DNA from: Candidatus Azambacteria bacterium
Lineage (GTDB): Bacteria > Patescibacteriota > Minisyncoccia > GWC2-36-17 > WO2-46-25
Assembly: GCA_016234725.1 (NCBI GenBank)
Contig: JACRAK010000012.1
Coordinates: forward strand, 10,619-74,618
Direction of reading: 5' to 3'
Length of the DNA: 64,000 nt
Positions 24,551-46,530 of this stretch are shown here, piece by piece. Both the position numbers and the translations under genes were made by a program. The notes below the pieces were generated by a model. That model saw nothing but the letters and a program-made list of their open reading frames with translations. It ran no database searches and was not told the DNA's origin. How positions within the stretch are numbered: the first letter of the stretch is position 1; every line of letters starts with the position of its first letter.

Positions 24551-24624
24551 CCGTCAACCACTTTTTGTAGCGGGGGAGTTTGCCGGAAACTATCTGGGTA
24601 TATGTTTCTCGCAGGTGTCTGGTC
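24551..24624. repeat. Conserved about 75-bp noncoding element, copy B
   Basis: see 21872-21950. Confidence 0.55.
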
Positions 24625-25465: not shown

Positions 25466-25561
25466 CACCCTCTTTTGTTTTTTGCCGACAGGATCAGAAA
25501 AACCGGGCGTGGCGGAAGTTATGGCGGAAAGCTTTGAAAAATAAAGGTTTTTTGGTATCAT
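25466..25561 (+). promoter_or_regulatory. Conserved regulatory element copy 1 (GGCGGAA-N5-GGCGGAA direct repeat + TTGAAA-N17-TATCAT promoter)
   Basis: Shares the core (a)tc(t/a)gaaaaaccgggcgtggcggaagttatggcggaaa(a/g)ctttgaaaaataaa with copies 2 and 3. Confidence 0.6.
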
Positions 25562-28100: not shown

Positions 28101-28238
28101 GTTTAAGAAACTACGCAACCACTCAAAACATATTTTATCACCCAACAACCCCATTGTTTTTAAAGATAATCTGAAAAACCGGGCGTGGCGGAAGTTATGG
28201 CGGAAAACTTTGAAAAATAAAATTGTTTTTGATATGAT
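28101..28238. promoter_or_regulatory. Conserved regulatory element copy 2 between divergent promoters (rSAM-B operon on - ; HExxH c on +)
   Basis: about 125 bp about 90% identical to copy 3; -35 TTGAAA 28210-28215, -10 TATGAT 28233-28238; minus-strand TTGACA-17-TATATA at about 28020-28050. Confidence 0.6.
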
Positions 28239-30646: not shown

Positions 30647-30786
30647 TTTCAAGAAACTAACGCAACCCCTCAAAACATATTTTATCACTCACCAGCCCCC
30701 TTTGTTTTTTAAAGATAATCTGAAAAACCGGGCGTGGCGGAAGTTATGGCGGAAAACTTTGAAAAATAAAGGTTTTTTGGTATGAT
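30647..30786. promoter_or_regulatory. Conserved regulatory element copy 3 between divergent promoters (rSAM-C operon on - ; MTase/HK on +)
   Basis: Same 125-bp element; -35 TTGAAA 30759-30764, -10 TATGAT 30781-30786; minus-strand TTGACA-17-TAATGT about 30600-30630. Confidence 0.6.
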
Positions 30787-31704: not shown

Positions 31705-33882
31705 GTGTTCTATTTTATAGCAACGTCTTTAGTAAATGCTTTTATTGCCGGCTTGCTCGGATTCCTTGTCATTTCAAAAAATTGGAGGGATCTCGCGAAC
31801 AAGTTATTTTTTGGACTTAGCATTTCTGTTGTCTTCTGGGCATTAAATTATTGGCAATGGCTTTCTTCTCAAAACGCAAATTCCGCGCTGGTTTTTTCAC
31901 GGCTATTTTCGGTAGGAGCTCTTTTTATTCCCATTTTTTATTTTCATTGGGTTCTTATTTTCAGCGGAACAAACAAACAATACAAGACATTTCTTAAAGT
32001 TTTATATTTCATCGCTTTTGTTTTTCTTTCCCTTTCCTTCTCAAAACTATTTATCGAAGGAGTGGGGCAAAAACTTTTTTTCCCTTTTTGGCCAACCCCC
32101 GGAATTCTTTACAATATCTATTTAATTGTTATCTATTTTGGACTCACGATCTATTCTTTGTTTATTCTCTGGAGGAGTTATATTCGTAGTAATGACAGCC
32201 ATCAGAAAGCAATCATTAAATATATCATATTGGGATCCTTCATTGGGTTTAGCGGGGGAGCAACAAACTTTTTCTTATGGTACGATATCCCGATTTTGCC
32301 GTATGGAAATATTCTTGTTAGTTTCTATCCCTTAGCTCTTGCTCTCGCCAGCTTCCGGCACGGCCTTTTCAACATCAAGGTCATCGCCACAGAATTGCTG
32401 ACGCTCACTGTCTGGATCGCGGTATTGGTTGAATTGATATTAGCTGAAACATGGGAAAAGCGGCTTTTGGAAGCGGGGTTGTTGGCGTTCGTGGTGGTGT
32501 CCGGTATTTTTATTATCCGCAGCGTGTTGAAGGAGGTTGAGCAGAAGGACAAGTTTAAAGATTTATCAGAACGACTGGAAAGCGCGAATGCGCAGCTTAA
32601 ACAAAAAACGCTGTATCTGACGACATTACAGGGGTTTACGCATGACATCGGCAGGACGCTTGATTTTAAGGAGATCACTCAAAAGATCGTTGACGGCATT
32701 TCGGAAAAATTTGGGTATCTTGCCGGCCTGCTTCTCTTGGTGTCCGAAGACGGCAAGATGATCTTTCCCGTTACTATCACGGAGAACACGATCACGAAGA
32801 TCGCGCTTAAGATATTGCCAAAACAGATGCATGAATATGCCGGCGATTTTGAGCATGACGATACGCTATCGATCCGGGCGGTCAAGGACAACGCGATACA
32901 GCAAAGCAATGCCATAGCCGATTTTCTCAGCCCGCCGATCTCCGAAACGCTGTGCGTGACGATCCAGAAGGCAACCGGGCTGAAATCCGGCGTAGCGATA
33001 CCGATACGCTCTGAAGGGAAGGCGATCGGCGTACTCGATATTTTTCTTGATCGGCCGAAAGAAGAGATAGGAGGCGACGAGCTCGAGGTGATGAAAACGC
33101 TTGCAAACCAGATCGGCATCGTACTCAAAAATGCATCGCTGTTCGAACAAGTGAAGGAAGCAAACGAAAAGCTGAAAGAATTGGACGATCTGAAAACGGA
33201 CTTTATTTCCATCGCGTCGCATCAGTTGCGTACGCCGCTCACGGCGATCAAGGGGTATACCTCTATGATCATGGAAGGGTCATACGGCGAGGTGTCTGAT
33301 AAAGTGAGAGTAACAATAGGAAAGGTGTTTCAATCCGCCCAGCGCCTTATTTATATCGTGAATGACTTGCTTGATATTTCCCGTATCGAGCAGGGGCGGT
33401 TTACCATTGCGCTTGAGCCGATAAAGGTGGCGAATGTGCTGAAAGATGTGGTGGAGGAGCTCCAGCAGAATGCAAAAAGCAAGAACCTTTCACTTGAGCT
33501 TGCGGTAGCACCGGAAAATATGGAGGTAACGGCGAGCGCCGACTTTAACAAGATACGGCAGGTGTTTTTGAATGTGATCGACAATGCGATCAAATATACC
33601 AACGAAGGATATGTGCGCGTGGGAGTTGAGAAGAGAGCGAATGATGTGCTTATGTCCGTAAAGGATTCCGGCATCGGTATTTCAGAGGCAAGCATGAAGA
33701 ATCTGTTCCAGAAATTCAGCCGGGCAAAAGGCGTGACAAAGCTCCATACCGACGGCTCCGGCCTCGGGCTCTTTATCGTCAAGAAGATCATGGAAGCCCA
33801 TGGCGGCACCGTGTGGGCGGAATCGGAAGGCGAAGGCAAGGGCTCGCAGTTTTATGTTTCCATCCCTTTGCAAAAGGAGTAG
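31705..33882 (+). CDS. Sensor histidine kinase with N-terminal 7TM domain, GAF-like region, HisKA and HATPase_c
   Basis: 7 hydrophobic helices; H-box SHQLRTPLTAIKGY; N/G1/G2 boxes; AT-rich 5' half vs GC-rich 3' half. Confidence 0.75.
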   Translation: MFYFIATSLVNAFIAGLLGFLVISKNWRDLANKLFFGLSISVVFWALNYWQWLSSQNANSALVFSRLFSVGALFIPIFYFHWVLIFSGTNKQYKTFLKVLYFIAFVFLSLSFSKLFIEGVGQKLFFPFWPTPGILYNIYLIVIYFGLTIYSLFILWRSYIRSNDSHQKAIIKYIILGSFIGFSGGATNFFLWYDIPILPYGNILVSFYPLALALASFRHGLFNIKVIATELLTLTVWIAVLVELILAETWEKRLLEAGLLAFVVVSGIFIIRSVLKEVEQKDKFKDLSERLESANAQLKQKTLYLTTLQGFTHDIGRTLDFKEITQKIVDGISEKFGYLAGLLLLVSEDGKMIFPVTITENTITKIALKILPKQMHEYAGDFEHDDTLSIRAVKDNAIQQSNAIADFLSPPISETLCVTIQKATGLKSGVAIPIRSEGKAIGVLDIFLDRPKEEIGGDELEVMKTLANQIGIVLKNASLFEQVKEANEKLKELDDLKTDFISIASHQLRTPLTAIKGYTSMIMEGSYGEVSDKVRVTIGKVFQSAQRLIYIVNDLLDISRIEQGRFTIALEPIKVANVLKDVVEELQQNAKSKNLSLELAVAPENMEVTASADFNKIRQVFLNVIDNAIKYTNEGYVRVGVEKRANDVLMSVKDSGIGISEASMKNLFQKFSRAKGVTKLHTDGSGLGLFIVKKIMEAHGGTVWAESEGEGKGSQFYVSIPLQKE

Positions 33883-33924
33883 GTAGCATTGGTTATTTTA
33901 TAAAATAAAACCCATATTAAGTAT

Positions 33925-34947
33925 ATGAATACACTAAACAGGAAATATAAAGCCGGGGTTATTGGCCTCGGCCATCAATCTTTGGAGGATCATATTCCCG
34001 CTATTAAGGCGTCTCCCGATGTTGAATTAGTAGGTGTGGTCGAGGTAGATGAACAGAAGTTAAAATCGTTTCTTGAAGAAAACAAAGATATAGATGGTTA
34101 TAATAATATAGATGATTTTTTAAAAAACAAACAACCAGATTTTATTGTCATTACTGTCCCGCACCACCTGCATTATGAAATAGTAAAAAAGGCAACGGAA
34201 AGAAGAATTCACATTCTTAAAGAAAAGCCATTCGCTATTTCCTTTGAACAAGGAAAGGAAATAAAAAAATTGGCAGAAAAAACCGAGACCCAGATTATGA
34301 TTACCCTCCAAAGAAGATTTAATCCAATATATTCTACTTTTTTTCAATTAATAGATAAGATTGGCGAACCCTTTTTTATTGAATCAAAATATACTTTTTA
34401 TACTGATTCGCCGCATGAAGGGTGGAGGGGGAGAAAAGATTTAGCTGGAGGAGGGTGTTTAATAGATATGGGGTATCATGCGATTGATCTTTTGATGTGG
34501 TATTTTGGGTTGCCTGATTTAGTTTTTGCTGAAACATCGTGTGCAGCAAAAGAAAATACTTGTTACGATGCGGAGGATACAGCACAAATCACTTTTCGCT
34601 ATAATAGTGAAAAGAATATTTTTGGTTCGCTTCTTGTTTCACGGGTAATCCCTCCAAAGCAAGAGTTTATAAATATATATGGTACAAGGGGAATTATCCA
34701 TATTGAGAGAGGAAAAATTGAGAGGTATGCTTCAAATGGCGAAACGCAAGAGGCTCTCAAAAGGGAGCAGCAATGGTCATCAGCGGCGCAAGATCAGATC
34801 GAATATTTTTTGAAGGTAATAGAAGGAAAAAAAGAAAATCTAAGTAATCCAGAGTTTCATTTACAACACCTCGCCTTTATTGAAGCAGCATATAAAGCAA
34901 GAGAATCGAAACAATATATAAATCCAAAAAAATATCTGGAAAAATGA
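33925..34947 (+). CDS. Gfo/Idh/MocA family NAD(P)-dependent oxidoreductase
   Basis: N-terminal Rossmann GVIGLGHQ…; family-typical length. Confidence 0.65.
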   Translation: MNTLNRKYKAGVIGLGHQSLEDHIPAIKASPDVELVGVVEVDEQKLKSFLEENKDIDGYNNIDDFLKNKQPDFIVITVPHHLHYEIVKKATERRIHILKEKPFAISFEQGKEIKKLAEKTETQIMITLQRRFNPIYSTFFQLIDKIGEPFFIESKYTFYTDSPHEGWRGRKDLAGGGCLIDMGYHAIDLLMWYFGLPDLVFAETSCAAKENTCYDAEDTAQITFRYNSEKNIFGSLLVSRVIPPKQEFINIYGTRGIIHIERGKIERYASNGETQEALKREQQWSSAAQDQIEYFLKVIEGKKENLSNPEFHLQHLAFIEAAYKARESKQYINPKKYLEK

Positions 34948-36206
34948 AAAAGGAAAAACAAAAACTTGCAATTTTAGGAGGATCTCCAACTATAAAAAGC
35001 AAGAGGTCTCATTATCAATGGCCAAAGATAACAAAAAGTATAGAGAAAGCAGTTATAAAGCAGCTTTATGAAGGCATTTCCATATACGATAAAAGCGGCA
35101 TCTTTGAAAGGTTTGAGGAGAATTTTGCTAAGTATCACGAAAGAAAGTATGCGCTATTATGCAATTCTGGCACAACAGCGATTCACTCGATGTTTGTTGC
35201 TGCTGGATTCAAACAAGGAGATGAGGTAATTTGTCCAGCTTACACATTTTTTGCTACGGTAACCCCTCTTTTATTTGTTGGTGCAAAGCCAATACTTTGT
35301 GATTGTGATGAAAACGGGAATATAGATCCAGGGGAAATTAAAAAGAAAATCAATTCAAAAACTAAGGGAGTGGTTATAACCCATATGTGGGGGATTCCTT
35401 GCCAAATGGATGAGATTGTAAAAATTTGCAAAAAAAATAAATTACTGTTATTAGAAGACTGTTCTCATGCGCATGGAGCAACATATAAAAGCAAACCTCT
35501 CGGCTCTTTTGGTGATTTAGCAGCATGGAGCCTTCAGGGGTTAAAAAATGTGAGTGGTGGAGAGGGTGGAGTTCTTGTCGCAAATAATGATGAATTCTAC
35601 TATAAAGCACTCCTCCTTGGGCATTACAATAAGCGATGCAAGCAAGAGATTCCCAAAACACATAAATTTTATAAATATGCAATAACAGGCATGGGATTAA
35701 AATACAGAGCTCATCCTCTTGCGATTGCCATTGCATACAATGTGTTTAAAGACCTAGATGCTTATAGGAAAATTAAAAATAAATTTGCTTTAAAAATAAT
35801 AAAAGAGCTTAGAAGCATAAATGGCCTTGCTGCTCCAAAAATAAAATCAGGGGTCACTCCCTCTTGGTATGCGCTCGTGTTTCAATATAAGAAGGATAAG
35901 TTTCAAGATCTTCCCATCGAGAAAATTTTTAGTGCTTTCCAAGCAGAAAACCTAACAGAAGTGGATCGTCCAGTATCAACCGCCCCTCTTAATCTTTTAC
36001 CCCTATTTCAAAGCCCTGAAGAGTTGTTTCCTGTCTATAAAAATAATCTGTTTTCGTATAAACCGGGAGATTTCCCGCGCGCGGAAAATTTTTATCACAA
36101 CGCAATCAAACTTCCCTTATGGACAAGTAAGAAAGACGCAAAAATGGTAGCTATGTATATAAAAGGAATCAAAAAAGTTATTAAAAATTATAGAAAATTA
36201 CTATGA
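34944..36206 (+). CDS. DegT/DnrJ/EryC1/StrS family PLP-dependent sugar aminotransferase
   Basis: …DLAAWSLQGLKNVSGGEGG (Schiff-base Lys region), fold-type I pattern. Confidence 0.65.
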   Translation: MKKEKQKLAILGGSPTIKSKRSHYQWPKITKSIEKAVIKQLYEGISIYDKSGIFERFEENFAKYHERKYALLCNSGTTAIHSMFVAAGFKQGDEVICPAYTFFATVTPLLFVGAKPILCDCDENGNIDPGEIKKKINSKTKGVVITHMWGIPCQMDEIVKICKKNKLLLLEDCSHAHGATYKSKPLGSFGDLAAWSLQGLKNVSGGEGGVLVANNDEFYYKALLLGHYNKRCKQEIPKTHKFYKYAITGMGLKYRAHPLAIAIAYNVFKDLDAYRKIKNKFALKIIKELRSINGLAAPKIKSGVTPSWYALVFQYKKDKFQDLPIEKIFSAFQAENLTEVDRPVSTAPLNLLPLFQSPEELFPVYKNNLFSYKPGDFPRAENFYHNAIKLPLWTSKKDAKMVAMYIKGIKKVIKNYRKLL

Positions 36207-36646
36207 ATCAGAAAAAAATTGTACAAAAAGTCGTTCTTGCAGGAGTAGTGATGAATGAAGGGAAAATTTTAATTCTTCAAAGGCATAGTGGTGAAGACGT
36301 ATATCCGGGTATATGGGAATTGCCAAGTGGAAAAAGAGAAGCTCTTGAGCTATCTGAGGAGTCTCTTGCTCGCGAGGTGAAGGAGGAAAGCGGTCTTGAC
36401 ATTAAAATTATTTCGCCTTTTTCCATGTTTGATTATCAAATTGAAAAGCCCGATGAAATTCGCGATTCAACTCAAATAAATTTTCTTGTGATTCCAATTA
36501 ATAACCCCGAGGTTATTTTAAGTTCTGAACATCAGGCATTTGTATGGATTGGGGTTGATGAAATTGACAGATATGATATTACTGAAGACACAAAAAAAGT
36601 TATTAAAAAAGGATTTGAGTTTGCTCTATTGTTAAAATTAGTATAA
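36203..36646 (+). CDS. NUDIX hydrolase
   Basis: Nudix box GKREALELSEESLAREVKEESGL. Confidence 0.65.
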   Translation: MNQKKIVQKVVLAGVVMNEGKILILQRHSGEDVYPGIWELPSGKREALELSEESLAREVKEESGLDIKIISPFSMFDYQIEKPDEIRDSTQINFLVIPINNPEVILSSEHQAFVWIGVDEIDRYDITEDTKKVIKKGFEFALLLKLV

Positions 36647-37314
36647 TGATGGGAAAAGAGAGTCCTTTTTTTTGGATAAACATAGAAGGTACAGATGGAG
36701 TTGGAAAAACAACGATATCCAGAAAACTCCGCGATCATCTACAAGAGCTTTATCCTAACGAGAAATTTATTTTATTTAATGAATTTTCTAATTTTGAAAT
36801 AGGGAAAATAATAAAGCGGGTAATAAAAAAAGAAAAGTTTTTTAAATTAAATTCAAATACTCACTATCCTCTCGCGGAAACACTTATGCTCGTTACTGAT
36901 CTAATGTGTCAATTTGAAGCGGAGGTGTTTAGTAGAAAAAGCAGAAAAAAAGTATATATTATTTCAGATAGAGGCCCCCATTCTTTTTTAACCTATCAAT
37001 TAATAAGGCTAAACGATTTTTATCCGCAAGGGAAGTGGAAAAAATGGGTAGAAGATATATTAAGACCGTTTGGCAGACCAGATCTTTCTATTTTTCTTGT
37101 TTCAGATATTGGTGAAATAAAAAATAGATTGATAAAAAGAGGAGATGATCGAGTATTAGAGGATTTGCAATTTATTACGAAAATACAAAGCTCTTATATA
37201 AATTTAGCAAAAAAAGATAAAAAATCTTTTGTTTTAAAAAATAAAAATAATGCCCTACAGCGAACAGTAGATGATGCTACTCAAATTGTAAAACAATATT
37301 TACTGGGGAAGTGA
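36646..37314 (+). CDS. Thymidylate kinase-like P-loop kinase
   Basis: P-loop IEGTDGVGKTT (Tmk EGxDGxGKTT). Confidence 0.5.
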   Translation: MMGKESPFFWINIEGTDGVGKTTISRKLRDHLQELYPNEKFILFNEFSNFEIGKIIKRVIKKEKFFKLNSNTHYPLAETLMLVTDLMCQFEAEVFSRKSRKKVYIISDRGPHSFLTYQLIRLNDFYPQGKWKKWVEDILRPFGRPDLSIFLVSDIGEIKNRLIKRGDDRVLEDLQFITKIQSSYINLAKKDKKSFVLKNKNNALQRTVDDATQIVKQYLLGK

Positions 37315-37379
37315 TAATTCCATCAAAAAAGCATTTATAAAAGAAACAGCGCAATAATTTTGTTATTGCGCTGTTAAAA

Positions 37380-37841
37380 CTACTCAATCTTAAGGATGAT
37401 GATGGCTTTTCTTTTTCCTCCAACCTTGCCTTCTCTGGCATCGTTAATCATAGCTCCTACTAATAAACGAGCAAGAGGAGCATTGTAAGAAATGGTGTTT
37501 TTTTGATCGTGAAAGATCATAAAACTACCTATCCGGATGGTTTGAATCTTGCCAGTTTCCTCGTCTTGAAATGTTGCGCATTTCCCGATACTTACTTTTT
37601 CACTGCTTGTTTCCGGTGATACTACTTTTGCATTATTTCTTATCTTGATAAGTTCACGTAGCCTTGAAGACCACATGTATTGCTGACGCTCCCCATCCTC
37701 AAAAGCAAAATTATCATGGAATGTCTCCGCTCCTTCCTGACAGCTTTTCCCCATTTCTTGTCCTATTTCTTTTATCTTATCGCAAATTTGCTCGATTTGC
37801 TTATCTAAACCCTCAAAATCTTCTTTCAAAAAAAAGTACAT
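37380..37841 (-). CDS. Transcription elongation factor GreA/GreB family
   Basis: Coiled-coil N-term; C-terminal …ISYNAPLARLLVG (GreA SPLGxALLG). Confidence 0.65.
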   Translation of the reverse strand: MYFFLKEDFEGLDKQIEQICDKIKEIGQEMGKSCQEGAETFHDNFAFEDGERQQYMWSSRLRELIKIRNNAKVVSPETSSEKVSIGKCATFQDEETGKIQTIRIGSFMIFHDQKNTISYNAPLARLLVGAMINDAREGKVGGKRKAIIILKIE

Positions 37842-37957
37842 GATCGCCTCCTTTATGTGTGACTAATTTTTTAAAGATCGTCTTACGTGCTACAATACCC
37901 CCAAACACCGAGGTCTGTCAATCATTAAAAACTGGAAAAGTTTATTAATACATCATT

Positions 37958-38082
37958 TCATCGTAAAAAAGATCATGGAAGCTCATGGCGGCACCGTGTG
38001 GGCGGAATCGGAAGGCGAAGGCAAGGGCTCGCAGTTTTATGTTTCCATCCCGCTTGCGGCAGTGCAGACGGTGGTGAAGTAA
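37958..38082 (+). pseudogene. Duplicated 3'-terminal fragment of the histidine kinase gene (copy of 33775-33882)
   Basis: about 97% nt identity to the HK C-terminal coding end (…MEAHGGTVWAESEGEGKGSQFYVSIP…); GC-rich island in AT-rich surroundings. Confidence 0.7.
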
Positions 38083-38117
38083 TAAAGGAGCACATGAAGT
38101 AATGAGGTCGTAGCAAA

Positions 38118-38588
38118 ATGCACTCCTTTAAAGTATTATTCAAATATATGATTGAACAAAAAACTCATTTAGGTATTTATGGCGTGATACAGAGTGACAA
38201 TAATATTCTCTTAATAAAAAAGTCTCGCGGACCCTATAAGGGGAAGTTTGATTTGCCCGGCGGAAAGTTAGAACATGGAGAGGGTTTGTGTGATGGATTA
38301 GCGAGGGAGATCAATGAAGAAACGGGGCTCACAGCAAAGGATTTTAAATTGTACGATAACTACAGTGTTACCGTTGATTTTAACGATGGGAAAAAAGAAA
38401 TTAGTATGTATCATGTTGGGCTGATATATTTAGTTATCGTGGCGAGTATAGACGATATAAAAGAAACCACAGATGAAGAGGACTCATTGGGCTCGTTTTG
38501 GCATACAATTGCGAATTTAGATGTTGAACAACTTTCTCCTTTTGCAAAAATGGCGGTTAAGACTATAAGAAATGAACCGCAGAAATAA
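38118..38588 (+). CDS. NUDIX hydrolase
   Basis: Nudix box GGKLEHGEGLCDGLAREINEETGL. Confidence 0.65.
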   Translation: MHSFKVLFKYMIEQKTHLGIYGVIQSDNNILLIKKSRGPYKGKFDLPGGKLEHGEGLCDGLAREINEETGLTAKDFKLYDNYSVTVDFNDGKKEISMYHVGLIYLVIVASIDDIKETTDEEDSLGSFWHTIANLDVEQLSPFAKMAVKTIRNEPQK

Positions 38589-38606
38589 AAACGACTACAT
38601 AATTTT

Positions 38607-39158
38607 ATGAGTGATGTATCGCATACAATACATAAACCGTATCAATCTTTTTGGGTAGAGAAGTTCGAAGAAGAGAAGATAATGCTGAAGGAAATATTTG
38701 GCGATAAAACCATTGCTATTGAGCATATAGGAAGCACTTCAATCCCAGGGCTTTTATCGAAGCCGATAGTTGATATTGCGGTGATGATCGAGAATCCGGA
38801 AGACGCGGACTCCTTTACTGAACCTCTTGTTAATCTAGGATATAGATTTCATTCATCAAGCACCGAAAGATATTTCTATACCAAAGGCACTCCCATTGAA
38901 TATCATGTATCGATAGCGTATGCAGACCGAGGAGGTTTTTGGCCTCGGCAGATCTTGTTTCGAGATTATTTACGGACCAATCCGGAAGCTCGGGATGAGT
39001 ATGCAAGATTGAAAGAAAGATTGTTGCAGAAAGATCCGACCGGGAAAGGCGAATACTTGAGCGGCAAAACCGAATTTGTTCAAAAAATATTAGAAAGAGC
39101 GGGGTGGAAAGAGGGTCAGACATACAGAACAATGCTTCCTTTGCAAAAGAGGGTATAA
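38607..39158 (+). CDS. GrpB/UPF0157 family protein
   Basis: …IEHIGSTSIPGLLSKPIVDIAVMIE… signature. Confidence 0.55.
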   Translation: MSDVSHTIHKPYQSFWVEKFEEEKIMLKEIFGDKTIAIEHIGSTSIPGLLSKPIVDIAVMIENPEDADSFTEPLVNLGYRFHSSSTERYFYTKGTPIEYHVSIAYADRGGFWPRQILFRDYLRTNPEARDEYARLKERLLQKDPTGKGEYLSGKTEFVQKILERAGWKEGQTYRTMLPLQKRV

Positions 39159-39169
39159 TAAGGTAGATT

Positions 39170-41035
39170 TTGAGTATGAATATCTACCGGAAAATCGCGG
39201 ATGCGATGCAGGATCCATCTGTTTCTGCATTTGTTGAAGAAGAAAAGATCGGGCTTGCGGAGGTAAAGCATATAAAAGAAGCCATATCCCAAAAAGAGAA
39301 GCAGGAGGAGTTTTTGGATTTACCGGAAGGCGAGGATGCATATCCGTTTCTTACATATAAACATTCTATTAGGGATTTTCTAAGAGGGGAGTATGGATTT
39401 GATGAATTAGCGGAGGTGCCGAAAGGGGTGGATGCGGATTTCGCAATCCCGTGTTTTTCTATTGCGATGATAAAGGGAATAAAACCACAGGAGGCGGCGA
39501 TAGAAATTGCGGAAGCGATAAAAAAAGAATGTGCATTCATTGAGCGCGCGGAGGTTACCGGCGGATATGTGAATATATATGTAGACGCAAAAGCACTGGG
39601 GCAGGAAACGATAGTTTCGGTGGAAACGCTGAAGGAGCACTATGGCGCGTCTCGTGCGGGAAAGCGGGCGAAGGTGGTTATCGAATATTCCTCTCCGAAT
39701 GCGGCAAAGCCGATGAGCGTGGGGCATTTGCGCTCGACCATTATCGGCGAGTCGCTGAAAAAGATATATGAGGCGCAAGGATTTACAGTGATCGGCATCG
39801 ATCATGTCGGTGATTTTGGCACGCAATTTGGGAAATTGCTGTATGCGATATCGCAATGGAAAGATGACGATGCATTTGCGAAAGAGCCGGTGAAAGAAAT
39901 GCTGCGGTTGTATGTGAAATTCCATGAAGAAGCAAAGAGCGATCCCACGCTTGAAGATAAGGGAAGGGAAATGTTTCAGAAGCTGGAGGCGGGAGATGCC
40001 AAGCTTGCGCGCCAGTGGGCGGATCTGTGTGCGGTGAGCGCGGATGATTTTGAAAAGATCTATGCGATGCTCGGGGTGAAGATCGATCTTCTGCTCGGGG
40101 AAAGCTTTTATCAAAGCAGAATACCCGATGTGATCGCGCGGTGTTTGGAAAAAAATATCGCGGTGAAAAATGAAGACGGTTCGGTGGCGGTGAATTTTGC
40201 GGATGAAGAATTTCCGTCGTTTCTGCTTGCGAAAAAAGACGGGTCGTCGTTGTATGCGGCGCGCGATATTGCGGCGGCTGAATTCCGGCTTGAGCAGTTT
40301 GATCCCGTAAAGATCATCTATGTGGTGGGCGGGGAGCAAACGCTCCACTTTAGACAAGTATTTAAAACACTCGGACTCCTCGGGCATGATGCGGGAAAAT
40401 TCACGCACGACAGCTTCGGGCTTGTGTCGCTGCCGGAAGGGAAGATGTCGACGCGAGAAGGACGCGTGATATTTTTGGAAGATCTGATCAACGAATCAAT
40501 CGAGCGCGCGAGGAAGATCGTGGCCGAAAAAAACCCTGAGCTGACAGATGCGGAAAAGAAGGAGATCGCGGAAGCGGTGGGTATCGGCGCTATCATCTAC
40601 AATGATCTTTCGCAAAGCAGAGAAAAGAATATTCAATTCACGTGGGATCGGGCGCTCAGCATGGAAGGAAACAGTGCGCCGTATCTGCAGTATGCCTATG
40701 CACGCGCGATGAGTATTGTAAAGAAAGCGGGCGATGTTCCTGTATTTGTAAAAGAGCATATCGTTATCGAAGCGGAGCAGGAGCAAAAACTGGTGCGCAT
40801 GATCGCGCGGCTTCCCGAGGCGGTACAGCATGCGCAGGTGGCAGGCGCCCCGCATATCGTGGCGACATATCTCAATGCGCTCGTGCAGGAATTCAGCCGG
40901 TTTTATAACGAGTGCCCGGTGCTTACCGCAGAGGGCGCGACGAGGGAAACACGGCTTCACCTTGTGCGCGCGACCGCGCAGGTGATCAAAAATGGACTTT
41001 TCTTATTAGGAATCCGCACACTCGATCGGATGTGA
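39170..41035 (+). CDS. argS: Arginine--tRNA ligase
   Basis: Class I ArgRS: SSPNAAKPMSVGHLRSTIIG, DALR anticodon-binding C-term. Confidence 0.9.
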   Translation: MSMNIYRKIADAMQDPSVSAFVEEEKIGLAEVKHIKEAISQKEKQEEFLDLPEGEDAYPFLTYKHSIRDFLRGEYGFDELAEVPKGVDADFAIPCFSIAMIKGIKPQEAAIEIAEAIKKECAFIERAEVTGGYVNIYVDAKALGQETIVSVETLKEHYGASRAGKRAKVVIEYSSPNAAKPMSVGHLRSTIIGESLKKIYEAQGFTVIGIDHVGDFGTQFGKLLYAISQWKDDDAFAKEPVKEMLRLYVKFHEEAKSDPTLEDKGREMFQKLEAGDAKLARQWADLCAVSADDFEKIYAMLGVKIDLLLGESFYQSRIPDVIARCLEKNIAVKNEDGSVAVNFADEEFPSFLLAKKDGSSLYAARDIAAAEFRLEQFDPVKIIYVVGGEQTLHFRQVFKTLGLLGHDAGKFTHDSFGLVSLPEGKMSTREGRVIFLEDLINESIERARKIVAEKNPELTDAEKKEIAEAVGIGAIIYNDLSQSREKNIQFTWDRALSMEGNSAPYLQYAYARAMSIVKKAGDVPVFVKEHIVIEAEQEQKLVRMIARLPEAVQHAQVAGAPHIVATYLNALVQEFSRFYNECPVLTAEGATRETRLHLVRATAQVIKNGLFLLGIRTLDRM

Positions 41036-41151
41036 TACAATATATAGAGGAATAAAGCACCTTTTTATCCTTTTCTCATCCGTTCACGCCTTCCATATTA
41101 TGCAAAAACAGGAAGGCTCCACTTCGGTTAAGAATCGGAAAGAATAAAAAG

Positions 41152-41622
41152 GTGCTTAACGTCGCTAAAAACACAGTGAATATCATAATCACCAAAAGCG
41201 CGGAGGAGACGAAGGCCGTGGCGAAGCTGTTCGCCGAGATGATCGCGCAGGAAAGGACGGCACAAGGCGCAGTGGTGGTGGCGCTTGAGGGTTCGCTCGG
41301 CGCAGGGAAGACCACGTTCGCGCAGGGGTTTGCTGAAGGGCTTGGCGTGAAAGAGAAAGTGAAGAGCCCGACATTCGTGCTCGTGCATGCGCACGCGCTG
41401 AAAAAGAAGATGCGGTTTAAGAATTTTTATCACGCTGATTGTTATCGTCTTGAGAGTGAAAAGGATGTGAGCGCGATCGGGCTTGATGAGGCGATGCGAG
41501 ACCCCGAGAATATCGTACTGGTGGAGTGGGCGCGGCGCATCAAAAAAGCGATGCCGAAAGATACGATACGTGTGACATTTAAATATATCAATGAACAAAC
41601 AAGAAAGATTAATTTTAATTGA
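41152..41622 (+). CDS. tsaE: tRNA threonylcarbamoyladenosine biosynthesis protein TsaE
   Basis: P-loop ALEGSLGAGKTTFAQG, about 155 aa. Confidence 0.75.
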   Translation: MLNVAKNTVNIIITKSAEETKAVAKLFAEMIAQERTAQGAVVVALEGSLGAGKTTFAQGFAEGLGVKEKVKSPTFVLVHAHALKKKMRFKNFYHADCYRLESEKDVSAIGLDEAMRDPENIVLVEWARRIKKAMPKDTIRVTFKYINEQTRKINFN

Positions 41623-44134
41623 CGGAAACGCGCTCGTGCACCGCGCGTTTCACGCATTGCCGCCGCTCTCCCACGAAGGAGAGCCGACGAATGCCGTGTA
41701 TGGATTTACGAGCGTTTTGCTTAAGGTACTCCGCGAGCTGAAGCCCGATTACGTCATTGCGACGTTCGACTTGGCCGCGCCGACATTCCGCCATGAGGAA
41801 TTCGCCGAATACAAGGCGCACCGACCCAAGACCGCTGATGACCTCGTGGTGCAATTCCCGAAAGTGAAAGATATGGTGCGCGCATTTGATATTCCTATTT
41901 TTGAAAAAGAAGGTTTTGAAGCGGACGATCTTATCGGCACGATCGCTTTGCTTGCAAAACAGCACACGCCGCGGGTGAAAACCATTATTATCACCGGCGA
42001 TCTTGACACGCTCCAGCTCGTTGATGACGACACCGAGGTGTATACGCTCAAAAAAGGAATTTCAGATACGGTGGTGTATGATGAAAAAGCTGTGCGGGAG
42101 CGGTTTGGCATCGCGCCGTCGCAGATGAATGATTTCAAAGGGCTCAAAGGAGACCCGTCGGACAATATTCCCGGCGTGCCGGGCGTGGGGGAAAAGACCG
42201 CAACGCAACTATTGCAAGAGTACGGCTCGCTTGAAAATATATATGAAAACATCGGCGTGATGCCCGAAAAGGTGCGGGCAAAAATAGAGCCGTTCAAAGA
42301 CCAGGCGTTCTTTTCCAAAAGTTTGGCGACCATCAAGCGCGATGTGCCGATAGAGCTCGATATGGAAAAAGCGAAGTTCGGCGGGTATGACCAAGCAGGA
42401 ATAGAAGAAACGCTGAGAAAATACGGATTTGCAAGCTTGATCCCGCGGCTGGCGCTGCATCGAGCGCACCACGAAGAGATGGCGGTGAGCGGGCAAGCGC
42501 CGACGACAGTAGGGAGCGGGGACATCGGCAAGCTGGGCAAAGAAAAAATGATCGCATGCGCATGGGACGGCGCGCACGCGCAGGTAGCGACACAGGGCGG
42601 CGCGATATATCAGTGCGCGTTCGCAGACATAAAAAGCGTGCTTGAAGACGAGCGCGTGAAAAAGATCTGCTACGACAGCAAGCAGTTTATCAAAGCGTGC
42701 CGGAAAAAAGGCGTCGCGCCGCGCGGCATCGAGTTTGATATCATGCTCGCGGCGTATCTGTTGGCGCCGGGGGAGCGGGGGTATCCGCTTGAGCATATCG
42801 CCCATAAAGAAGATGTCGCCGCGCGGCCGCCGCTTTCTTTTTTTGCGCTGCGGGAGAAGCTGGACGACACATTGCGCGCAGAAGGGCTTGTGAAAGTGAT
42901 GTATGAAATAGAAATGCCGCTTGTGCCGGTGCTTGCCGAGATGGAGCGGGTGGGCGTGAAAATAGATGTGCGGGCGCTTGAGACGCTTTCTTTGCATCTT
43001 GAACAGGAAAAAAACGAGGCGACACAGCGCATTTTTGCGCACGCAGGGGAGGAGTTCAACCCTGATTCGCCCGCCCAGCTTTCAAAGATATTATTTGAAA
43101 AACTGAACATTGCGCTTCCGGCGCGCGCAAAGCGCGTGAAGTCGGGCCTTTACAGCACCAAGGCGGATGAGCTTGAAAAGATACGGGACGCGCACCCGCT
43201 TGTGGGCGAGATCATTCGGTATCGCGAAGTGGCGAAACTGAAAAGCACCTACGCGGACGCGTTGCGCGAAGCGGTGCATCCCGACACGGGACGAATACAC
43301 ACCATTTTTAACCAGACCGGCACGGCAACAGGGCGGCTGTCTTCATCGGACCCGAATATGCAGAACATTCCCCAGCGCGGGGAGTTTGCCGACGCCGTAC
43401 GTTCCGCGTTCGTTGCCGATGAGGGCTTCAGCTTTGTCGCGCTGGATTTTTCACAGATCGAATTGCGCATCATCGCGTCGCTTTCGGGCGATGAGAAAAT
43501 GATCCACATCTTTGAATCGGGCGGGGATATTCACCGAGCGACCGCCGCGGAGGTGAATCACGTGCCGCTTGAAGCTGTGACGAAAGAAATGCGCAACAGC
43601 GCAAAAGCGCTCAATTTCGGGATACTGTACGGGATGGGCCAGCGCGCATTTGCACAGACCGCGGGCATTGATATCAAGACCGCAAAACAATTCATCGAAG
43701 AATATTTCAAGAATTTTACCGGCGTTGCCGCATTTATAGAAAAAACAAAGGAACACGCAAAGAAATACGGTTTTGCGCAGACGCTTACGGGGCGGAAGCG
43801 GTGGCTGCCCGAGATACGCTCGCAAAACCCGATGATCCGCAACGGCGCCGAGCGCATGGCGCAGAACATGCCGACACAGGGCCTGCAGGCCGACATCATC
43901 AAGCTCGCGATGATACGCATTGCGCGTGAGGTGCTTGCGCCGCGGCACACTGACGATGTGCGCTTGCTGCTGCAGATACACGACGAATTAATTTTTGAGG
44001 TGAAGGATGATATAATCAAGGAGGTCGTGCCGATACTCCGGCACATCATGGAGTCCGTGTTTCCTTTGCGCGTGCCTATCCGTGTCGATGTGCACGCGGG
44101 CAAGCGGTGGGGGGCTCTTCACCCGTTTCTCTAA
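41591..44134 (+). CDS. polA: DNA polymerase I (5'-3' exonuclease + family A polymerase, Taq-like length)
   Basis: N-terminal LILIDGNALVHRAFHAL; motifs A/B/C (…DYSQIELR…, RRSAKAINFGIIYG-like, …HDE…). Confidence 0.9.
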   Translation: MNKQERLILIDGNALVHRAFHALPPLSHEGEPTNAVYGFTSVLLKVLRELKPDYVIATFDLAAPTFRHEEFAEYKAHRPKTADDLVVQFPKVKDMVRAFDIPIFEKEGFEADDLIGTIALLAKQHTPRVKTIIITGDLDTLQLVDDDTEVYTLKKGISDTVVYDEKAVRERFGIAPSQMNDFKGLKGDPSDNIPGVPGVGEKTATQLLQEYGSLENIYENIGVMPEKVRAKIEPFKDQAFFSKSLATIKRDVPIELDMEKAKFGGYDQAGIEETLRKYGFASLIPRLALHRAHHEEMAVSGQAPTTVGSGDIGKLGKEKMIACAWDGAHAQVATQGGAIYQCAFADIKSVLEDERVKKICYDSKQFIKACRKKGVAPRGIEFDIMLAAYLLAPGERGYPLEHIAHKEDVAARPPLSFFALREKLDDTLRAEGLVKVMYEIEMPLVPVLAEMERVGVKIDVRALETLSLHLEQEKNEATQRIFAHAGEEFNPDSPAQLSKILFEKLNIALPARAKRVKSGLYSTKADELEKIRDAHPLVGEIIRYREVAKLKSTYADALREAVHPDTGRIHTIFNQTGTATGRLSSSDPNMQNIPQRGEFADAVRSAFVADEGFSFVALDFSQIELRIIASLSGDEKMIHIFESGGDIHRATAAEVNHVPLEAVTKEMRNSAKALNFGILYGMGQRAFAQTAGIDIKTAKQFIEEYFKNFTGVAAFIEKTKEHAKKYGFAQTLTGRKRWLPEIRSQNPMIRNGAERMAQNMPTQGLQADIIKLAMIRIAREVLAPRHTDDVRLLLQIHDELIFEVKDDIIKEVVPILRHIMESVFPLRVPIRVDVHAGKRWGALHPFL

Positions 44135-44135
44135 C

Positions 44136-46268
44136 ATGGCGCTTTTCACTCACCACGATAAAAAAACAGCGGCACGGGAAACGCCAAGCGCGTTTCCCGT
44201 GTGGCGGACGGTGGCCGTCGGCTTGGTCGTCGTCGTGGCTTTTAATATCTTTTGGCTTGTTCCCGCGCTTCGCGACATGGAAGACAGGGTGCTTGCTCAT
44301 TTGCTTGAAACAGCGGAGAAGATCGAGATCGAAGCGAAAGAGATCGTTATCAGTCATCCAAAAAACCAGATCGATGAGCTTGCGCTCTTTGTGCTGCAAA
44401 AGCTGCGCGGCAATGTGACGCTCGATACGTTCGACGCGGGAGAGATCACGGCATTCTTGCAGGACAGGAACGAGGTGGTCGAGGTGTTTATCATCGATGC
44501 ATCAGGCATGGAAAAGGCGCGCGTATCGCATGGAAGAGTATTTGCGCCGCACGAACTCCGCAATGTCGCGGGAAGCGATTATTTTATCGAAGCACTCAAC
44601 GGGGGGTTTACCGCCCGCGCGTATCATTTGCCGCAGAAAGGCATTCCAAACATTCTCGCGTATGAACGCGTTGATGTGCCCGACCTCGGCACGTTCGTGT
44701 TCGGCGTGAATGTCGACATCCGCGATCGGCTGGAAGGGTTTTCGCAGAAGATCATGGAGGAAGAAGGGGAGCGCGTGTATATCGCCGATGATACCGGCGC
44801 GATCATCGACCACTATGCCCCGGAGCGGGTCGGCAATTCTTTGCTGCAGCTGGATTTCGTGAAGAAGGTGTTTGACGAGAGGGGAGGGGAAAAATATACG
44901 TATCAGTCCGGCGCGTATACCGACCGATCCGGCGAGAAAATGCAGGCGGTCGCGCTGTTGTTCGAGCCGATAAATTTCGTGATCGTTGCCGAAGAAGAAT
45001 ACGGGGAAGTGTGGCAAACATGGAACAAATTTCTCTTTTTTGCCATTGCGGGCCTGATCCTTTTTGTGCTGCTCGCGCTTGTGCTGACGCGGAGCACGCT
45101 TCGCGCGGTTGATTTTTCAAATCAGCTCATACGGGAAAAAGGAAGAACGGAGTCGGTGATCGCAAATCTCGAAACAGGCATCATCGAGTACAGCCCTGAT
45201 TTCCTCGTAACGCTTATGAATCCGAAAGCAGAGCAGATCCTCGGCGTTACAAAAGAAGATGCGCTCGGAGCCATTATCCATCCGAACATTATCCATAAAA
45301 ATCCGGCGCTCACGTCTCTGGCGCAGGTGCTGTACCCCATTCTCGCCGAGAACGTGCGGAAGGTCCGCCTTCAAAAAGGGATGCCTGATATCATTGAAAT
45401 GAGGTTGAGCAGGCCTTCCGAGATCGAGCTGCAGATCTCCACCATCCCTATTCGCGACGAGAAGAATAGCGTGGTGCGGTATTTGAAGGTGCTTCGCGAC
45501 GTATCGCGCGAGCAGGCGATCGCAAAGTCGAAGTCGGAATTCATTTCCGTTGCGGCGCATCAGCTGCGCACGCCGCTGTCGGCGATCAAGTGGGTCATGA
45601 AGCTCATGCTGGACCAGGACGCGGGGCCGATCACCCCTGAACAAAAAGACCTGTTGACGAAAGGGTATGAGTCCAATGAGCGGATGATCGAGCTGGTGAC
45701 CGACATGCTTGATGTTGCGCGCATTGAAGAAGGGAAGTTCGGATTTTCCTTTCAGCATACGAACCTCATCGCGCTGGTCCAGAAAGCGATGGATGCGTTC
45801 GTCGTAAAGGCGAAAGAAAAGAACATCATGCTCGTGTTTGAAAAGCCGGAAACGGCCTATTCGCTCAAGATCGATGCCGCGCGCATCGAGCTGGTGCTGC
45901 AGAATTTCATCGATAACGCGCTCAAATACACCCCCAATGACGGAACGATCACGGTAAGCATCACGGCAACCGGGAGATATGTAAAGATAAGCATTCGGGA
46001 CACGGGCATCGGCGTGCCCAAGGAGCAGGCGGTGCGCCTGTTCACGAAATTCTTCCGCGGGACGAACGCGGTGAAACGGCAAACGGAGGGAAGCGGGCTC
46101 GGGCTGTTTTTGGCAAAGAACATCGTGATGCGCCATGGGGGGAATGTTTCCGTGGAAACGGAAGAAGGGAAGGGCTCGGCATTCTCCTTTACATTGCCGC
46201 TGGACGAAGATAAGATTCCCGGAGAAGAGGGCAAGAACGAGGAATTCGTAAACGGACTCTCCACATGA
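44136..46268 (+). CDS. Sensor histidine kinase (TM/extracytoplasmic region, PAS, HisKA, HATPase_c)
   Basis: H-box AAHQLRTPLSAIKW; G-boxes; start placed just after polA stop. Confidence 0.75.
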   Translation: MALFTHHDKKTAARETPSAFPVWRTVAVGLVVVVAFNIFWLVPALRDMEDRVLAHLLETAEKIEIEAKEIVISHPKNQIDELALFVLQKLRGNVTLDTFDAGEITAFLQDRNEVVEVFIIDASGMEKARVSHGRVFAPHELRNVAGSDYFIEALNGGFTARAYHLPQKGIPNILAYERVDVPDLGTFVFGVNVDIRDRLEGFSQKIMEEEGERVYIADDTGAIIDHYAPERVGNSLLQLDFVKKVFDERGGEKYTYQSGAYTDRSGEKMQAVALLFEPINFVIVAEEEYGEVWQTWNKFLFFAIAGLILFVLLALVLTRSTLRAVDFSNQLIREKGRTESVIANLETGIIEYSPDFLVTLMNPKAEQILGVTKEDALGAIIHPNIIHKNPALTSLAQVLYPILAENVRKVRLQKGMPDIIEMRLSRPSEIELQISTIPIRDEKNSVVRYLKVLRDVSREQAIAKSKSEFISVAAHQLRTPLSAIKWVMKLMLDQDAGPITPEQKDLLTKGYESNERMIELVTDMLDVARIEEGKFGFSFQHTNLIALVQKAMDAFVVKAKEKNIMLVFEKPETAYSLKIDAARIELVLQNFIDNALKYTPNDGTITVSITATGRYVKISIRDTGIGVPKEQAVRLFTKFFRGTNAVKRQTEGSGLGLFLAKNIVMRHGGNVSVETEEGKGSAFSFTLPLDEDKIPGEEGKNEEFVNGLST

Positions 46269-46516: not shown

Positions 46517-46530
46517 TTTCTTGCACACAT

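Follow-up and report, generated by a model that had tools for sequence, protein, structure and literature searches.

The DNA analyzed here (the window) is a 64-kb stretch of a metagenome-assembled genome of Candidatus Azambacteria. Its backbone has a GC content of ~0.52 (GC3 0.55–0.73) and carries a 25-kb low-GC variable region flanked by genes for a pilB-like ATPase and ArgRS. Within this region, an intact histidine kinase (HK) gene, whose product is identical to an NCBI protein labeled Candidatus Azambacteria, is followed by a low-GC cassette, an orphan copy of the HK 3' end (the stub), and two accessory genes that precede ArgRS. Homologs of RecO, RuvB, and RuvC are encoded within or adjoining the window. 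The features are as follows:

31705–33882, plus strand: intact HK gene, 725 aa (Pfam: HisKA_7TM, GAF, HisKA, HATPase_c)
33772–33866, plus strand: repeat copy 1, HK codons 690–721 (FIVKKIMEAHGGTVWAESEGEGKGSQFYVSIP), from alignment
33865–33877, plus strand: palindromic motif CC(C)TTTGCAAAAGG(G), spanning the HK tail (PLQK) right before the stop codon
33884–37956, no strand: low-GC cassette, 4.07 kb (Pfam, composition; absent from the syntenic relative L001)
33925–34947: Gfo/Idh/MocA gene (Pfam)
34944–36206: DegT gene (Pfam)
36203–36646: NUDIX gene (Pfam)
36646–37314: thymidylate-kinase-like (Tmk-like) gene (Pfam)
37345–37375: bidirectional terminator (terminator scan)
37380–37841, minus strand: gene for a GreA/GreB C-terminal-domain protein (GreA-like; Pfam)
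37921–37892, minus strand: predicted GreA-like promoter, TTGACA-18-TATTGT (promoter scan)
37957–38051, plus strand: repeat copy 2, orphan HK 3' stub, 91/95 identical to copy 1
38052–38082, plus strand: stub-specific tail (…LAAVQTVVK and stop), GC 0.55, differing from the PLQKG/E of close HK relatives
38118/38148–38588, plus strand: NUDIX-B, accessory gene between stub and ArgRS
38607–39158, plus strand: GrpB, accessory gene between stub and ArgRS
39138–39150, plus strand: second motif copy, ~20 nt upstream of the ArgRS start, at the far edge of the inserted interval
39170: ArgRS start

The HK gene is chimeric in GC3, which is 0.30–0.38 in codons 1–180 and 0.55–0.73 in codons 181–725, so the split in composition is not merely an amino-acid effect. 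The HKs of L001 and L003 have the same GC3 pattern. A preliminary description of this DNA had divided the gene into an AT-rich 7TM half and a GC-rich kinase half; the split is evident, but the switch lies at about codon 180, within the 7TM region and not at the kinase boundary. The kinase core (residues 481–724) is 93% identical at the amino acid level to that of 545-aa HKs bearing different sensors, which take the position of the 725-aa HK and not a place beside it. This conserved core is a putative homology anchor within the variable region, and all close relatives share the HK tail PLQKG/E.

Pfam analysis supported the five cassette genes named in the preliminary description, and its contrast between an AT-rich segment and GC-rich repeats also holds (cassette GC 0.35, GC3 0.22–0.36; repeats GC 0.53–0.55). 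As the Gfo/Idh/MocA oxidoreductase and the DegT aminotransferase form a WbpB/WbpE-like pair, the cassette is probably a nucleotide-sugar amino-modification module.

Alignment of the HK end with the DNA beyond the cassette revealed a direct repeat of 95 nt (33772–33866 and 37957–38051; 91 identical positions; spacing 4185 nt). A near-identical copy of the HK end had indeed been described downstream; however, its length is 95 nt instead of ~105 bp, and homology stops at 38051, not 38060. That copy 2 is an orphan gene end was correctly recognized: it has no HK homology upstream and no credible start codon. The sole ATG of the stub would give a 35-aa peptide with no evident ribosome-binding site, and an Rfam search of the stub returned no match. 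All four mismatches (33774, 33780, 33783, and 33798) are synonymous changes at third codon positions (P ~0.002) and fall in the first 28 nt of the repeat (P ~0.008), leaving the last 67 nt identical. Both copies have a lineage-specific ACC (Thr) codon. Past the repeat, reading continues to ...IPLQKE and a stop in copy 1 and to ...IPLAAVQTVVK and two stops in copy 2 (stop at 38080–38082); no HK ending in PLAAVQTVVK was present among the best 120 database matches. Because the differences are synonymous only and the stub has a C-terminal tail of its own, it appears to be the end of another HK allele that was once functional. The parent HK of the stub is hypothetical, and in the reading that we favor the stub itself is non-functional.

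L001, a syntenic relative (~80% nucleotide identity, collinear on both sides), has the gene order HK, NUDIX (minus strand), GrpB, ArgRS; it contains neither the cassette nor the stub, and another insert occupies the site. The cassette was also detected in L013 (100%) and L014 (83%), in the latter beginning in an HK end and finishing in a stub as in the window; L020 has a related module in a core context. Comparison of the window with L014 gives ~92% conservation for the stub (over the shared 53 nt), 61% for adjacent intergenic DNA, and 77–86% for cassette genes, from which we infer concerted evolution of the stub. In L007/L008, an intact HK with a new tail (PLSR and stop) is followed by ~5 kb of other genes and then by a 50-codon stub with the canonical tail (PLQKG and stop). 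The L008 stub leads into native downstream DNA, homologous to the region downstream of the L001 HK, and differs from the L001 HK end by 14 synonymous and 2 nonsynonymous codons and an in-frame 6-nt deletion. Two stubs occur in L019; their starts lie near codons 710 and 698, and their tails differ. Homology between stub 1 and the end of the L012 HK covers the tail and ~30 nt downstream, beyond which the flanks differ by a 3.4-kb insertion in L012. One stub each was thus counted in the window, L007/L008, and L014, and two in L019. L013, L014, L018, L019, and L021 are k=31 contigs which break at repeats, so the link to a full HK is not directly visible in those samples; L007 (a contig of 1.3x coverage with indels) and L008 are ordinary ENA/GTDB contigs with stub arrangements like that of the window. 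The relatives with such scars are groundwater bacteria.

The left ends of the stubs vary among genomes (codons 674, 690, ~698, and ~710), so there is no constant crossover point on that side, and right extents vary as well. All four independent stub junctions fall within the final 52 codons of the 725 (by uniform chance (52/725)^4, ~3e-5), and in unrelated junctions the right edge of homology coincides at ...ATCCC, beside the palindrome. This motif is a 15-nt palindrome of 6+3+6 nt (CCCTTTGCAAAAGGG), found only twice in 64 kb at up to one mismatch (0.15 expected); L001 and L008 carry it at both corresponding positions. The copy of the HK-tail palindrome shortly before ArgRS is present in the window, L001, L008, and L021; in the window, the last GrpB codons run into this second copy (…LPLQKRV and stop), and seven genes lie between the two copies. 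In L003, a GrpB 3' stub precedes the motif, so junctions fall outside the HK too. Recurrence of the palindrome before ArgRS, together with this GrpB stub, suggests that the HK–ArgRS interval is wholly built of insertions. Homologs of NUDIX-B occur in unrelated contexts in L015, L019, and L021.

A Pfam scan of 50 window ORFs (the five of the cassette and 45 others) detected no recombinase; the sole match of recombinase/transposase kind was an IS200-like Y1 transposase 33 kb away. Precomputed Pfam annotation likewise included no recombinase in the homologous cassettes of L013, L014, and L020. There are no terminal inverted repeats at the cassette ends, no transposase in the cassette, and no attC-like fold in the repeat, and IntI integrase is absent from the window ORFs scanned. 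The cassette had no blastn match in 50,697 phage records, and the HK-end pattern is absent from IMG/VR. The preliminary description had read the segment as an insertion into the 3' end of the HK gene, in the style of an integrative element with target duplication, and had suggested a search for att or recombinase sites. An insertion beside the HK 3' end is supported by L001, which lacks both cassette and stub, and direct repeats of the target gene's 3' end do flank the insert (95 nt, 91/95). An integrase-driven integrative element is not supported, as there is no recombinase and the stubs have no fixed left end; the search for such sites likewise yielded no recombinase, terminal inverted repeats, or constant left end of the stubs. 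A transposon was rejected because transposase and inverted repeats are missing and 95 nt is not a transposase-like target duplication; known target duplications are far shorter. Lack of IntI among the scanned ORFs, a fold that is not attC-like, and seven genes between two motif copies reject an integron, and the lack of phage-record and IMG/VR matches a prophage or phage-borne module. A polymorphic toxin locus was also rejected, considering the HisKA/HATPase_c kinase, the tails of 3–11 codons, and the metabolic/GreA-like cargo; only the mechanism may be common to both.

On balance, we favor C-terminal displacement as the explanation, with the stub as a recombination scar, namely the displaced 3' end of an HK allele, left when DNA was added via homology to the conserved HK end. 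In this process, DNA would be added beside the HK through its highly conserved 3' end, leaving the 3' end of the other allele behind. The addition might occur either by Campbell-type homologous insertion of a circular intermediate bearing an HK 3' fragment and the cassette, or by HFIR, that is, one-sided homologous plus one-sided illegitimate recombination of linear DNA from a related strain. Either route would end in an intact HK, the cassette, a short HK stub, the older accessory genes, and ArgRS, and the 67 identical nucleotides may be an exchange tract or the product of later gene conversion. By which route and in which direction the event ran is inferred, as is gene conversion. In agreement with displacement, orphan 3' fragments of varying length follow an intact gene in the same orientation and are nearly identical to it; the orphans have different tails, followed by their own older downstream DNA; and their differences bear the mark of purifying selection (window 4/4 synonymous; L008 14:2). 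HFIR has been proposed for T6SS arrays (PMC5361080), and Patescibacteria are reported to be naturally competent and to have kept homologous-recombination genes (PMC12455944).

Several observations stand against this scar interpretation. The pre-insertion allele was not found among the best 120 database matches. Campbell recombination alone leaves the distribution of differences (4 in 28 nt vs. 0 in 67 nt) unexplained, and gene conversion or near-identical parents must be assumed. Clustering of junctions in the last 52 codons needs an added argument (loss of long repeats by recombination, or clean replacement where homology is long) or, alternatively, points to a site preference, and the shared ...ATCCC edge beside the palindrome could mean site-specific cutting. 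Such features would be expected if a trans-acting recombinase (Xer-, integron-, or integrase-like), encoded elsewhere, had integrated the cassette site-specifically, with the HK 3' end and the palindrome as att site, the 95-nt repeats as attL and attR, and a cassette that could excise as a circle. We regard this as unlikely. It would account for the location of the palindrome exactly at the homology end (…ATCCC) in the window stub, the L007 HK, and L019 stub 2; for motif-bearing direct repeats around other inserts (28 nt around NUDIX (minus strand) and GrpB in L001; 35 nt around a single Apyc1-like MBL gene in L021); for the restriction of the motif in the window to both edges of the inserted interval; and for the clustered junctions. 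By sequence inspection, the stub tail CCGCTTGCGGCAGTG also agrees with the motif at 9/15 positions. However, neither the 50 scanned ORFs nor any of the cassettes observed include a tyrosine or serine recombinase, the repeat ends vary on both sides, sites and cassettes do not pair one to one, and the L003 motif follows a GrpB stub. Moreover, the 6+3+6-nt motif is unlike dif sites, which are 28 bp long, and the single-strand fold of the repeat is no better than that of shuffled sequence (z -0.3 and -1.5). It is correspondingly doubtful that the stop-codon palindrome and adjoining HK 3' sequence are the attachment site of an Azambacteria cassette-capture system, with a trans-acting recombinase that is integron- or Xer/IMEX-like in function, accessory genes gained singly, and 95-nt repeats through which the cassette could exit and return in circular form. 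As a candidate recombination site, the palindrome at the HK/ArgRS junction is open to experimental test.

A deletion remnant of a second HK had been offered in the preliminary description as an alternative. In an arrangement HK1–cassette–HK2, an internal deletion would have spared the last 43 codons of a complete paralog. The resemblance of the stub to the end of another HK allele fits this proposal, as do its own tail, the frame intact to the stop, and synonymous-only differences; in addition, the kinase cores of the 725-aa and 545-aa HKs are near-identical, and the gene pool therefore includes a second HK type with such a 3' end. But no related locus (L001, L003–L007, L012) has two full HKs in tandem or around a cassette, the 545-aa HKs replace the 725-aa HK in position, all four independent stubs are at most 52 codons long, and the stub has the lineage-specific ACC codon and 67 identical nucleotides in common with the resident gene, which together make a remnant improbable. 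We give very little weight to an assembly artefact, in which the exact 67-nt repeat was misjoined and an HK-tailC-NUDIX-B strain merged with a separate cassette molecule or strain. The metagenomic origin of the window is compatible with it, and the locus is a loop in the k=31 graph: independent k=31 Logan contigs, which match 33837–38013 and 38022–47993 at 100% and both cassette junctions exactly, end at the repeat edges just as a 67-nt repeat predicts and fit an integrated cassette or a circle plus empty site equally. On the other hand, the left junction of copy 2 (GreA-like promoter/HK codon 690, with its own synonymous variants) is present in independent contigs from two samples (L013 and L014), and therefore the orphan HK fragment is real in nature whatever the repeat phasing. 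Similar stubs also occur on the ordinary contigs of L007 and L008, and 67 nt is presumably shorter than normal reads and the large k of assemblers used for such genomes. It is also highly improbable that selection keeps the stub as a functional element, whether as a homology handle for cassette swap or loss, as a silent donor in HK-end gene conversion, or as a small ORF. Its conservation relative to L014 and its intact frame are in line with this idea, whereas the encoded amino acids do not differ from those of the resident gene, leaving nothing to convert, its only possible start lacks an evident ribosome-binding site, Rfam has no match, and gene conversion from a strongly constrained neighbor explains the conservation without function.

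The locus is an ordinary but well-documented insertion hot spot, and its type of scar recurs in related groundwater bacteria. It offers a sequence-level view of how ultra-small Patescibacteria, with few mobile-element genes, gain accessory genes. Addition seems to take place at a conserved gene end, anchored by homology, in a fixed variable region near the replication origin, and to leave datable scars. Stubs and tails could mark the order of gene gains across strains, and annotators should treat short orphan kinase ends at this locus as scars, not genes.

Integrative elements such as e14 and phage 21 at icd in Escherichia coli, and islands at tRNA/tmRNA genes, insert at a gene's 3' end and bring a replacement for it. 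As with e14/phage 21, a 3'-end direct repeat brackets the insert, the gene is intact, and the far end holds an orphan 3' fragment; unlike them, the window insert has no integrase or excisionase in or near it, the left ends show no crossover that is fixed among independent events, and the cargo consists only of five metabolic/transcription-factor genes. Integron cassettes (attC) and Xer-dependent modules (IMEX, pdif modules) also lack a recombinase of their own, and the short palindromic motif at some cassette borders is similar; however, IntI is missing, the repeat is not folded like attC, the motif does not accompany each cassette, and it has no dif architecture. Flexible genomic islands of the replacement or additive type (glycosylation islands) undergo exchange through homologous recombination within their conserved flanks (PMC4033161). 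Neisseria minimal mobile elements are likewise comparable. The window resembles both in its fixed position between conserved genes (pilB-like ATPase ... HK core ... ArgRS), lineage-specific sugar-modification/accessory genes, lower GC, and lack of mobility genes, but exchange here is often additive and leaves stubs instead of a clean double-crossover replacement.

At rhs loci, a core of high GC precedes a low-GC trough, and partial cores further downstream, which vary in length, are almost the same in sequence as the gene upstream (Jackson et al. 2009, PMC2935791); orphan CT/immunity arrays occur at CdiA and T6SS effector loci (Kirchberger et al. 2017, PMC5361080). Published explanations for rhs/T6SS loci are homologous recombination via circular intermediates, or HFIR (PMC2935791, PMC5361080). 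The window has the same layout as these rhs/CdiA/T6SS loci: an intact gene with a higher-GC core, a low-GC stretch, and same-orientation 3' copies of varying length with differing tails, and no recombinase. Its gene, in contrast, is a two-component sensor kinase and not a polymorphic toxin, the tips are functionless and only 3–11 codons long, the cargo serves sugar/nucleotide metabolism in place of toxin–immunity pairs, and the host is a Patescibacterium. Because the pattern has already been described for rhs/T6SS loci and flexible genomic islands, current concepts accommodate this locus without change.

The duplicated histidine kinase (HK) end lies in a lower-GC variable region, about 10–35 kb from the likely replication origin as judged by the position of dnaA-dnaN (3787-6688, at 3.8–6.7 kb, with rnpA and yidC ahead on the opposite strand). 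NCBI proteins identical to the HK, DegT, and NUDIX of the window are labelled Candidatus Azambacteria and are located on a 96-kb contig.

Features of the HK locus (window coordinates).
184-915, minus strand: IS200-like Y1 transposase domain protein, GC 0.40, adjoining high-GC genes
14.2–39.2 kb: lower-GC variable region (about 25 kb) between the T2SSE/pilB-like ATPase gene (12446-14119) and ArgRS (39170-41035)
31705-33882: HK, 725 aa, domains HisKA_7TM, GAF, HisKA, and HATPase_c
33772-33866, plus strand: repeat copy 1, HK codons 690-721 of 725
33865: palindrome CCCTTTGCAAAAGGG, copy 1, at the HK stop
33884-37956: cassette, with Gfo/Idh/MocA, DegT, NUDIX, and thymidylate-kinase-like (Tmk-like) genes on the plus strand and a convergent GreA/GreB C-terminal-domain gene
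37345-37375: predicted bidirectional terminator closing the plus-strand gene set of the cassette
37957-38051, plus strand: repeat copy 2 (the stub), 91/95 identical to copy 1
39138: palindrome CCCTTTGCAAAAGGG, copy 2, about 20 nt upstream of the ArgRS start

The preliminary description had claimed a downstream duplication of the HK 3' end, and this was confirmed as a 95-nt direct repeat whose copies are spaced 4185 nt apart. The stub lacks both upstream HK homology and a credible start codon, and it runs into a tail of its own (...IPLAAVQTVVK and two stops, vs ...IPLQKE and one stop in the HK gene). Among the 120 best HK homologues, none ends in PLAAVQTVVK or PLSR. All four mismatches (33774, 33780, 33783, and 33798) are third-position synonymous changes within the first 28 nt of the repeat, and the final 67 nt show no differences. 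As the chance probabilities of these two patterns are about 0.002 (4/4 synonymous) and 0.008 (4/4 within the first 28 nt), the differences are not accounted for by a fresh duplicate decaying at random; they look like the divergence of a pair of functional alleles together with a tract of recombination or conversion. An Rfam search of the whole window returned a tmRNA as the sole match (49474-49860, minus strand), which adjoins smpB (span 49474-50366).

The cassette has a GC content of 0.35 vs 0.53–0.55 in the repeats, and its GC3 is 0.22–0.36 vs 0.55–0.73 in the backbone. Its GreA/GreB-type gene has its own predicted promoter (TTGACA-18-TATTGT). The Gfo/Idh/MocA and DegT pair presumably resembles known amino-sugar-forming couples of an oxidoreductase and an aminotransferase, and a DegT-NUDIX fusion protein (P0202) is on record. 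In L020, a locus of another Patescibacterium, a Gfo-DegT-NUDIX-GreA module (GreA on the minus strand) with 75% amino-acid identity is found in a core-gene context, which argues that the cassette, rather than being exotic DNA, is a copy of a conserved Patescibacterial module and can be transferred. A phage origin was rejected, both an IMG/VR scan and blastn of the cassette against phage records being empty. PADLOC matched proteins of the cassette and its neighbourhood only weakly, to candidate families (NUDIX to PDC-S07 and Tmk-like to VakA/mad8); these matches are no evidence for a defence system.

Comparison with related loci revealed that HK stubs recur. L001, a Hainich aquifer contig with approximately 80% nucleotide identity, is collinear with the window on both flanks and has the order HK, NUDIX(-) (a reverse-strand NUDIX gene), GrpB, and ArgRS, with both cassette and stub absent. 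In the loci L003-L006, a 545-aa HK occupies the same place after RuvB/T2SSE, with gene sets that differ greatly on both sides and include glycosyltransferases downstream. A further lineage is represented by contig L007 and by L008, its clean, collinear equivalent (95.8% identity), in which an intact HK with a replaced tail (...IPLSR) is followed by about 5 kb of other genes and then by a 50-codon HK stub that retains the canonical tail (PLQKG/E type) and native downstream DNA homologous to L001. Relative to the L001 HK end, the L008 stub has 14 synonymous and 2 non-synonymous codons and an in-frame 6-nt deletion. Two stubs are present in L019, one with a canonical tail and the other ending in PLSH as on the L007 HK; their left ends are near codons 710 and 698, and across loci stub left ends fall at codons 674, 690, ~698, and ~710. 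Scanning with a degenerate 33-nt HK-end pattern detected one locus (L008) in GTDB genomes and four loci, two of them already known, in metagenomes.

The HK tail holds a 6+3+6 palindrome, CCCTTTGCAAAAGGG, which at no more than one mismatch occurs twice in the window vs 0.15 sites expected by chance, and which is found at the same two positions in L001 and L008. The second copy encodes the last codons of the window GrpB (...LPLQKRV, 39138-39158). In L001, a 28-nt repeat with the palindrome flanks NUDIX(-) and GrpB; in L003 (20750-20790), GrpB is reduced to a 3' stub followed by the palindrome. In L021, a 35-nt direct repeat (4590-4625 and 5474-5510) composed of the palindrome and the ArgRS leader is located directly upstream of ArgRS and flanks a lone Apyc1-like metallo-beta-lactamase gene (Pfam Anti-Pycsar_Apyc1). 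Genes of the HK-ArgRS interval move between lineages, as homologues of NUDIX-B, the NUDIX gene 3' of the stub, lie in unrelated contexts elsewhere (78–86% identical), and NUDIX(-) of L001 is 98% identical to the in-cassette NUDIX of L008 on backbones that are only about 80% identical. This tract comprises the gene and its upstream region (L001 12264-12807 vs L008 1109-1652), adjacent to HK in one lineage and inside a cassette in the other, and points to recent lateral exchange. Following NUDIX-B homologues did not recover a pre-insertion order of HK with the stub tail and NUDIX-B. The simplest reading of these arrangements is that HK and ArgRS were neighbours at first and that all DNA now between them was added there by repeated insertion.

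The HK gene itself is compositionally chimeric, as proposed earlier, with a GC3 of 0.30–0.38 in codons 1-180 and 0.55–0.73 in the remainder; the switch near 32245 is also present in relatives (L001 and L003). The kinase core (residues 481-724) shares 93% amino-acid identity with the 545-aa HKs despite unrelated sensor parts (725-aa HKs contain GAF and 545-aa HKs lack it), and thus forms a homology island within the variable region. This pattern suggests that sensor modules have been exchanged on the gene's 5' side.

Several other modules of the window are bracketed by repeats. Three direct-repeat copies of 73–120 nt (25481-25553, 28113-28229, and 30660-30778; 84–96% identical), each lying upstream of a plus-strand gene and itself containing a strong promoter-like TTGAAA-17-TATGAT, bracket two modules of an unknown protein plus an opposite-strand radical SAM/SPASM enzyme. 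L001 lacks both modules and has a single repeat copy upstream of a methyltransferase gene; the arrangement is a further case of DNA added between repeats within this variable region. A 74-nt direct repeat (21828-21955 and 24551-24624, 89% identical) contains a 30-nt palindromic terminator-like hairpin, AAAAAGACGGCATTTGATTGCCGTCTTTTT, also present at 14603-14632, and encloses a 2.6-kb module that encodes unknown proteins of 303 and 101 aa and a radical SAM/SPASM protein; two copies of it flank a variable segment of L001's own. Within the low-GC region, the stretch 15769-19783 encodes a Trp/Tyr-type tRNA synthetase, a chorismate-mutase-methyltransferase fusion, a glycosyl transferase family 3 protein (anthranilate-PRTase-like), and BtpA, an unusual gene set as accessory content of a variable region. 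At 51718-55323, a 1201-aa class I aminoacyl-tRNA synthetase (Ile/Leu/Val/Met group) has a His_Phos_1 (histidine-phosphatase) domain inserted within its catalytic domain (residues 521-689).

We consider that the stub is probably a scar of recombination, left at a hot spot of recurrent insertion, and an example of an already known kind. The integrative-element interpretation offered earlier is upheld only in part: the segment between the repeats is an insertion, but Pfam detected no recombinase among the cassette ORFs, the cassette ends lack inverted repeats, and the IS200-like Y1 transposase is the sole mobility-type match among 50 window ORFs. Site-specific recombination at the palindrome by a trans-acting system would account for junctions that coincide at ...ATCCC and for palindrome-bearing repeats flanking inserts; however, repeat extents vary, there is not one site per cassette, no recombinase was found among the scanned ORFs, and the single-strand fold is unremarkable, which makes such a system unlikely. 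An attC-like structure was rejected because repeats and palindrome fold as single strands no better than shuffles, a transposon target duplication because of repeat length and the lack of inverted repeats and of a transposase in the cassette, and antigenic-variation-like silent copies because stub and HK gene do not differ in the residues encoded. The other suggestion of the preliminary description, a deletion remnant of a second HK, is unlikely, as an intact second copy was seen in no relative.

Mis-phased assembly, conceivable for the 67-nt repeat only, is very improbable. Two Logan contigs, L013 (SRR12113407, 4177 nt; window 33837-38013) and L018 (window 38022-47993), match at 100%, and therefore both cassette junctions and the stub/NUDIX-B junction are present in raw data. 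Their ends reach precisely 30 nt inside the exact 67-nt repeat, as fits k=31 contigs breaking there; such contigs are silent on phasing, since the graph is the same for an integrated cassette as for a circle with an empty site. In another sample, contig L014 carries the same five genes (82.7% identity), with an HK end (tail PL) at its start and an HK stub at its end. Between the window and L014, stubs are about 92% identical over 53 shared nt, vs 61% for adjoining intergenic DNA and 77–86% for cassette genes. This higher conservation, together with an ACC (Thr) codon that both window copies share and that is unseen in relatives, implies that the stub evolves in concert with the resident HK.

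Under the favoured hot-spot reading, DNA would be added via the conserved HK 3' end, the end of another HK allele staying behind as the stub, and the 67-nt identity may be an exchange tract or a later conversion. All stubs span at most 52 codons, a shortness beyond chance; long repeats might be quickly lost by recombination, or longer terminal homology might give clean, stub-free replacement. Patescibacteria are reported to keep homologous-recombination genes and natural competence (PMC12455944), and homologues of RecO, RuvB, and RuvC are encoded in or next to the window. Homology-facilitated illegitimate recombination (HFIR) has been proposed for T6SS effector arrays (PMC5361080). In rhs "C-terminal displacement," a higher-GC conserved core precedes a low-GC trough, and partial 3' copies of varying length lie in the same orientation, near-identical to the upstream gene and with their own tails; homologous recombination involving circular intermediates has been named as the cause of the displacement (PMC2935791). 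The HK locus matches this pattern in its GC core and trough, its partial 3' copies, and their own tails, and we favour the same class of event.
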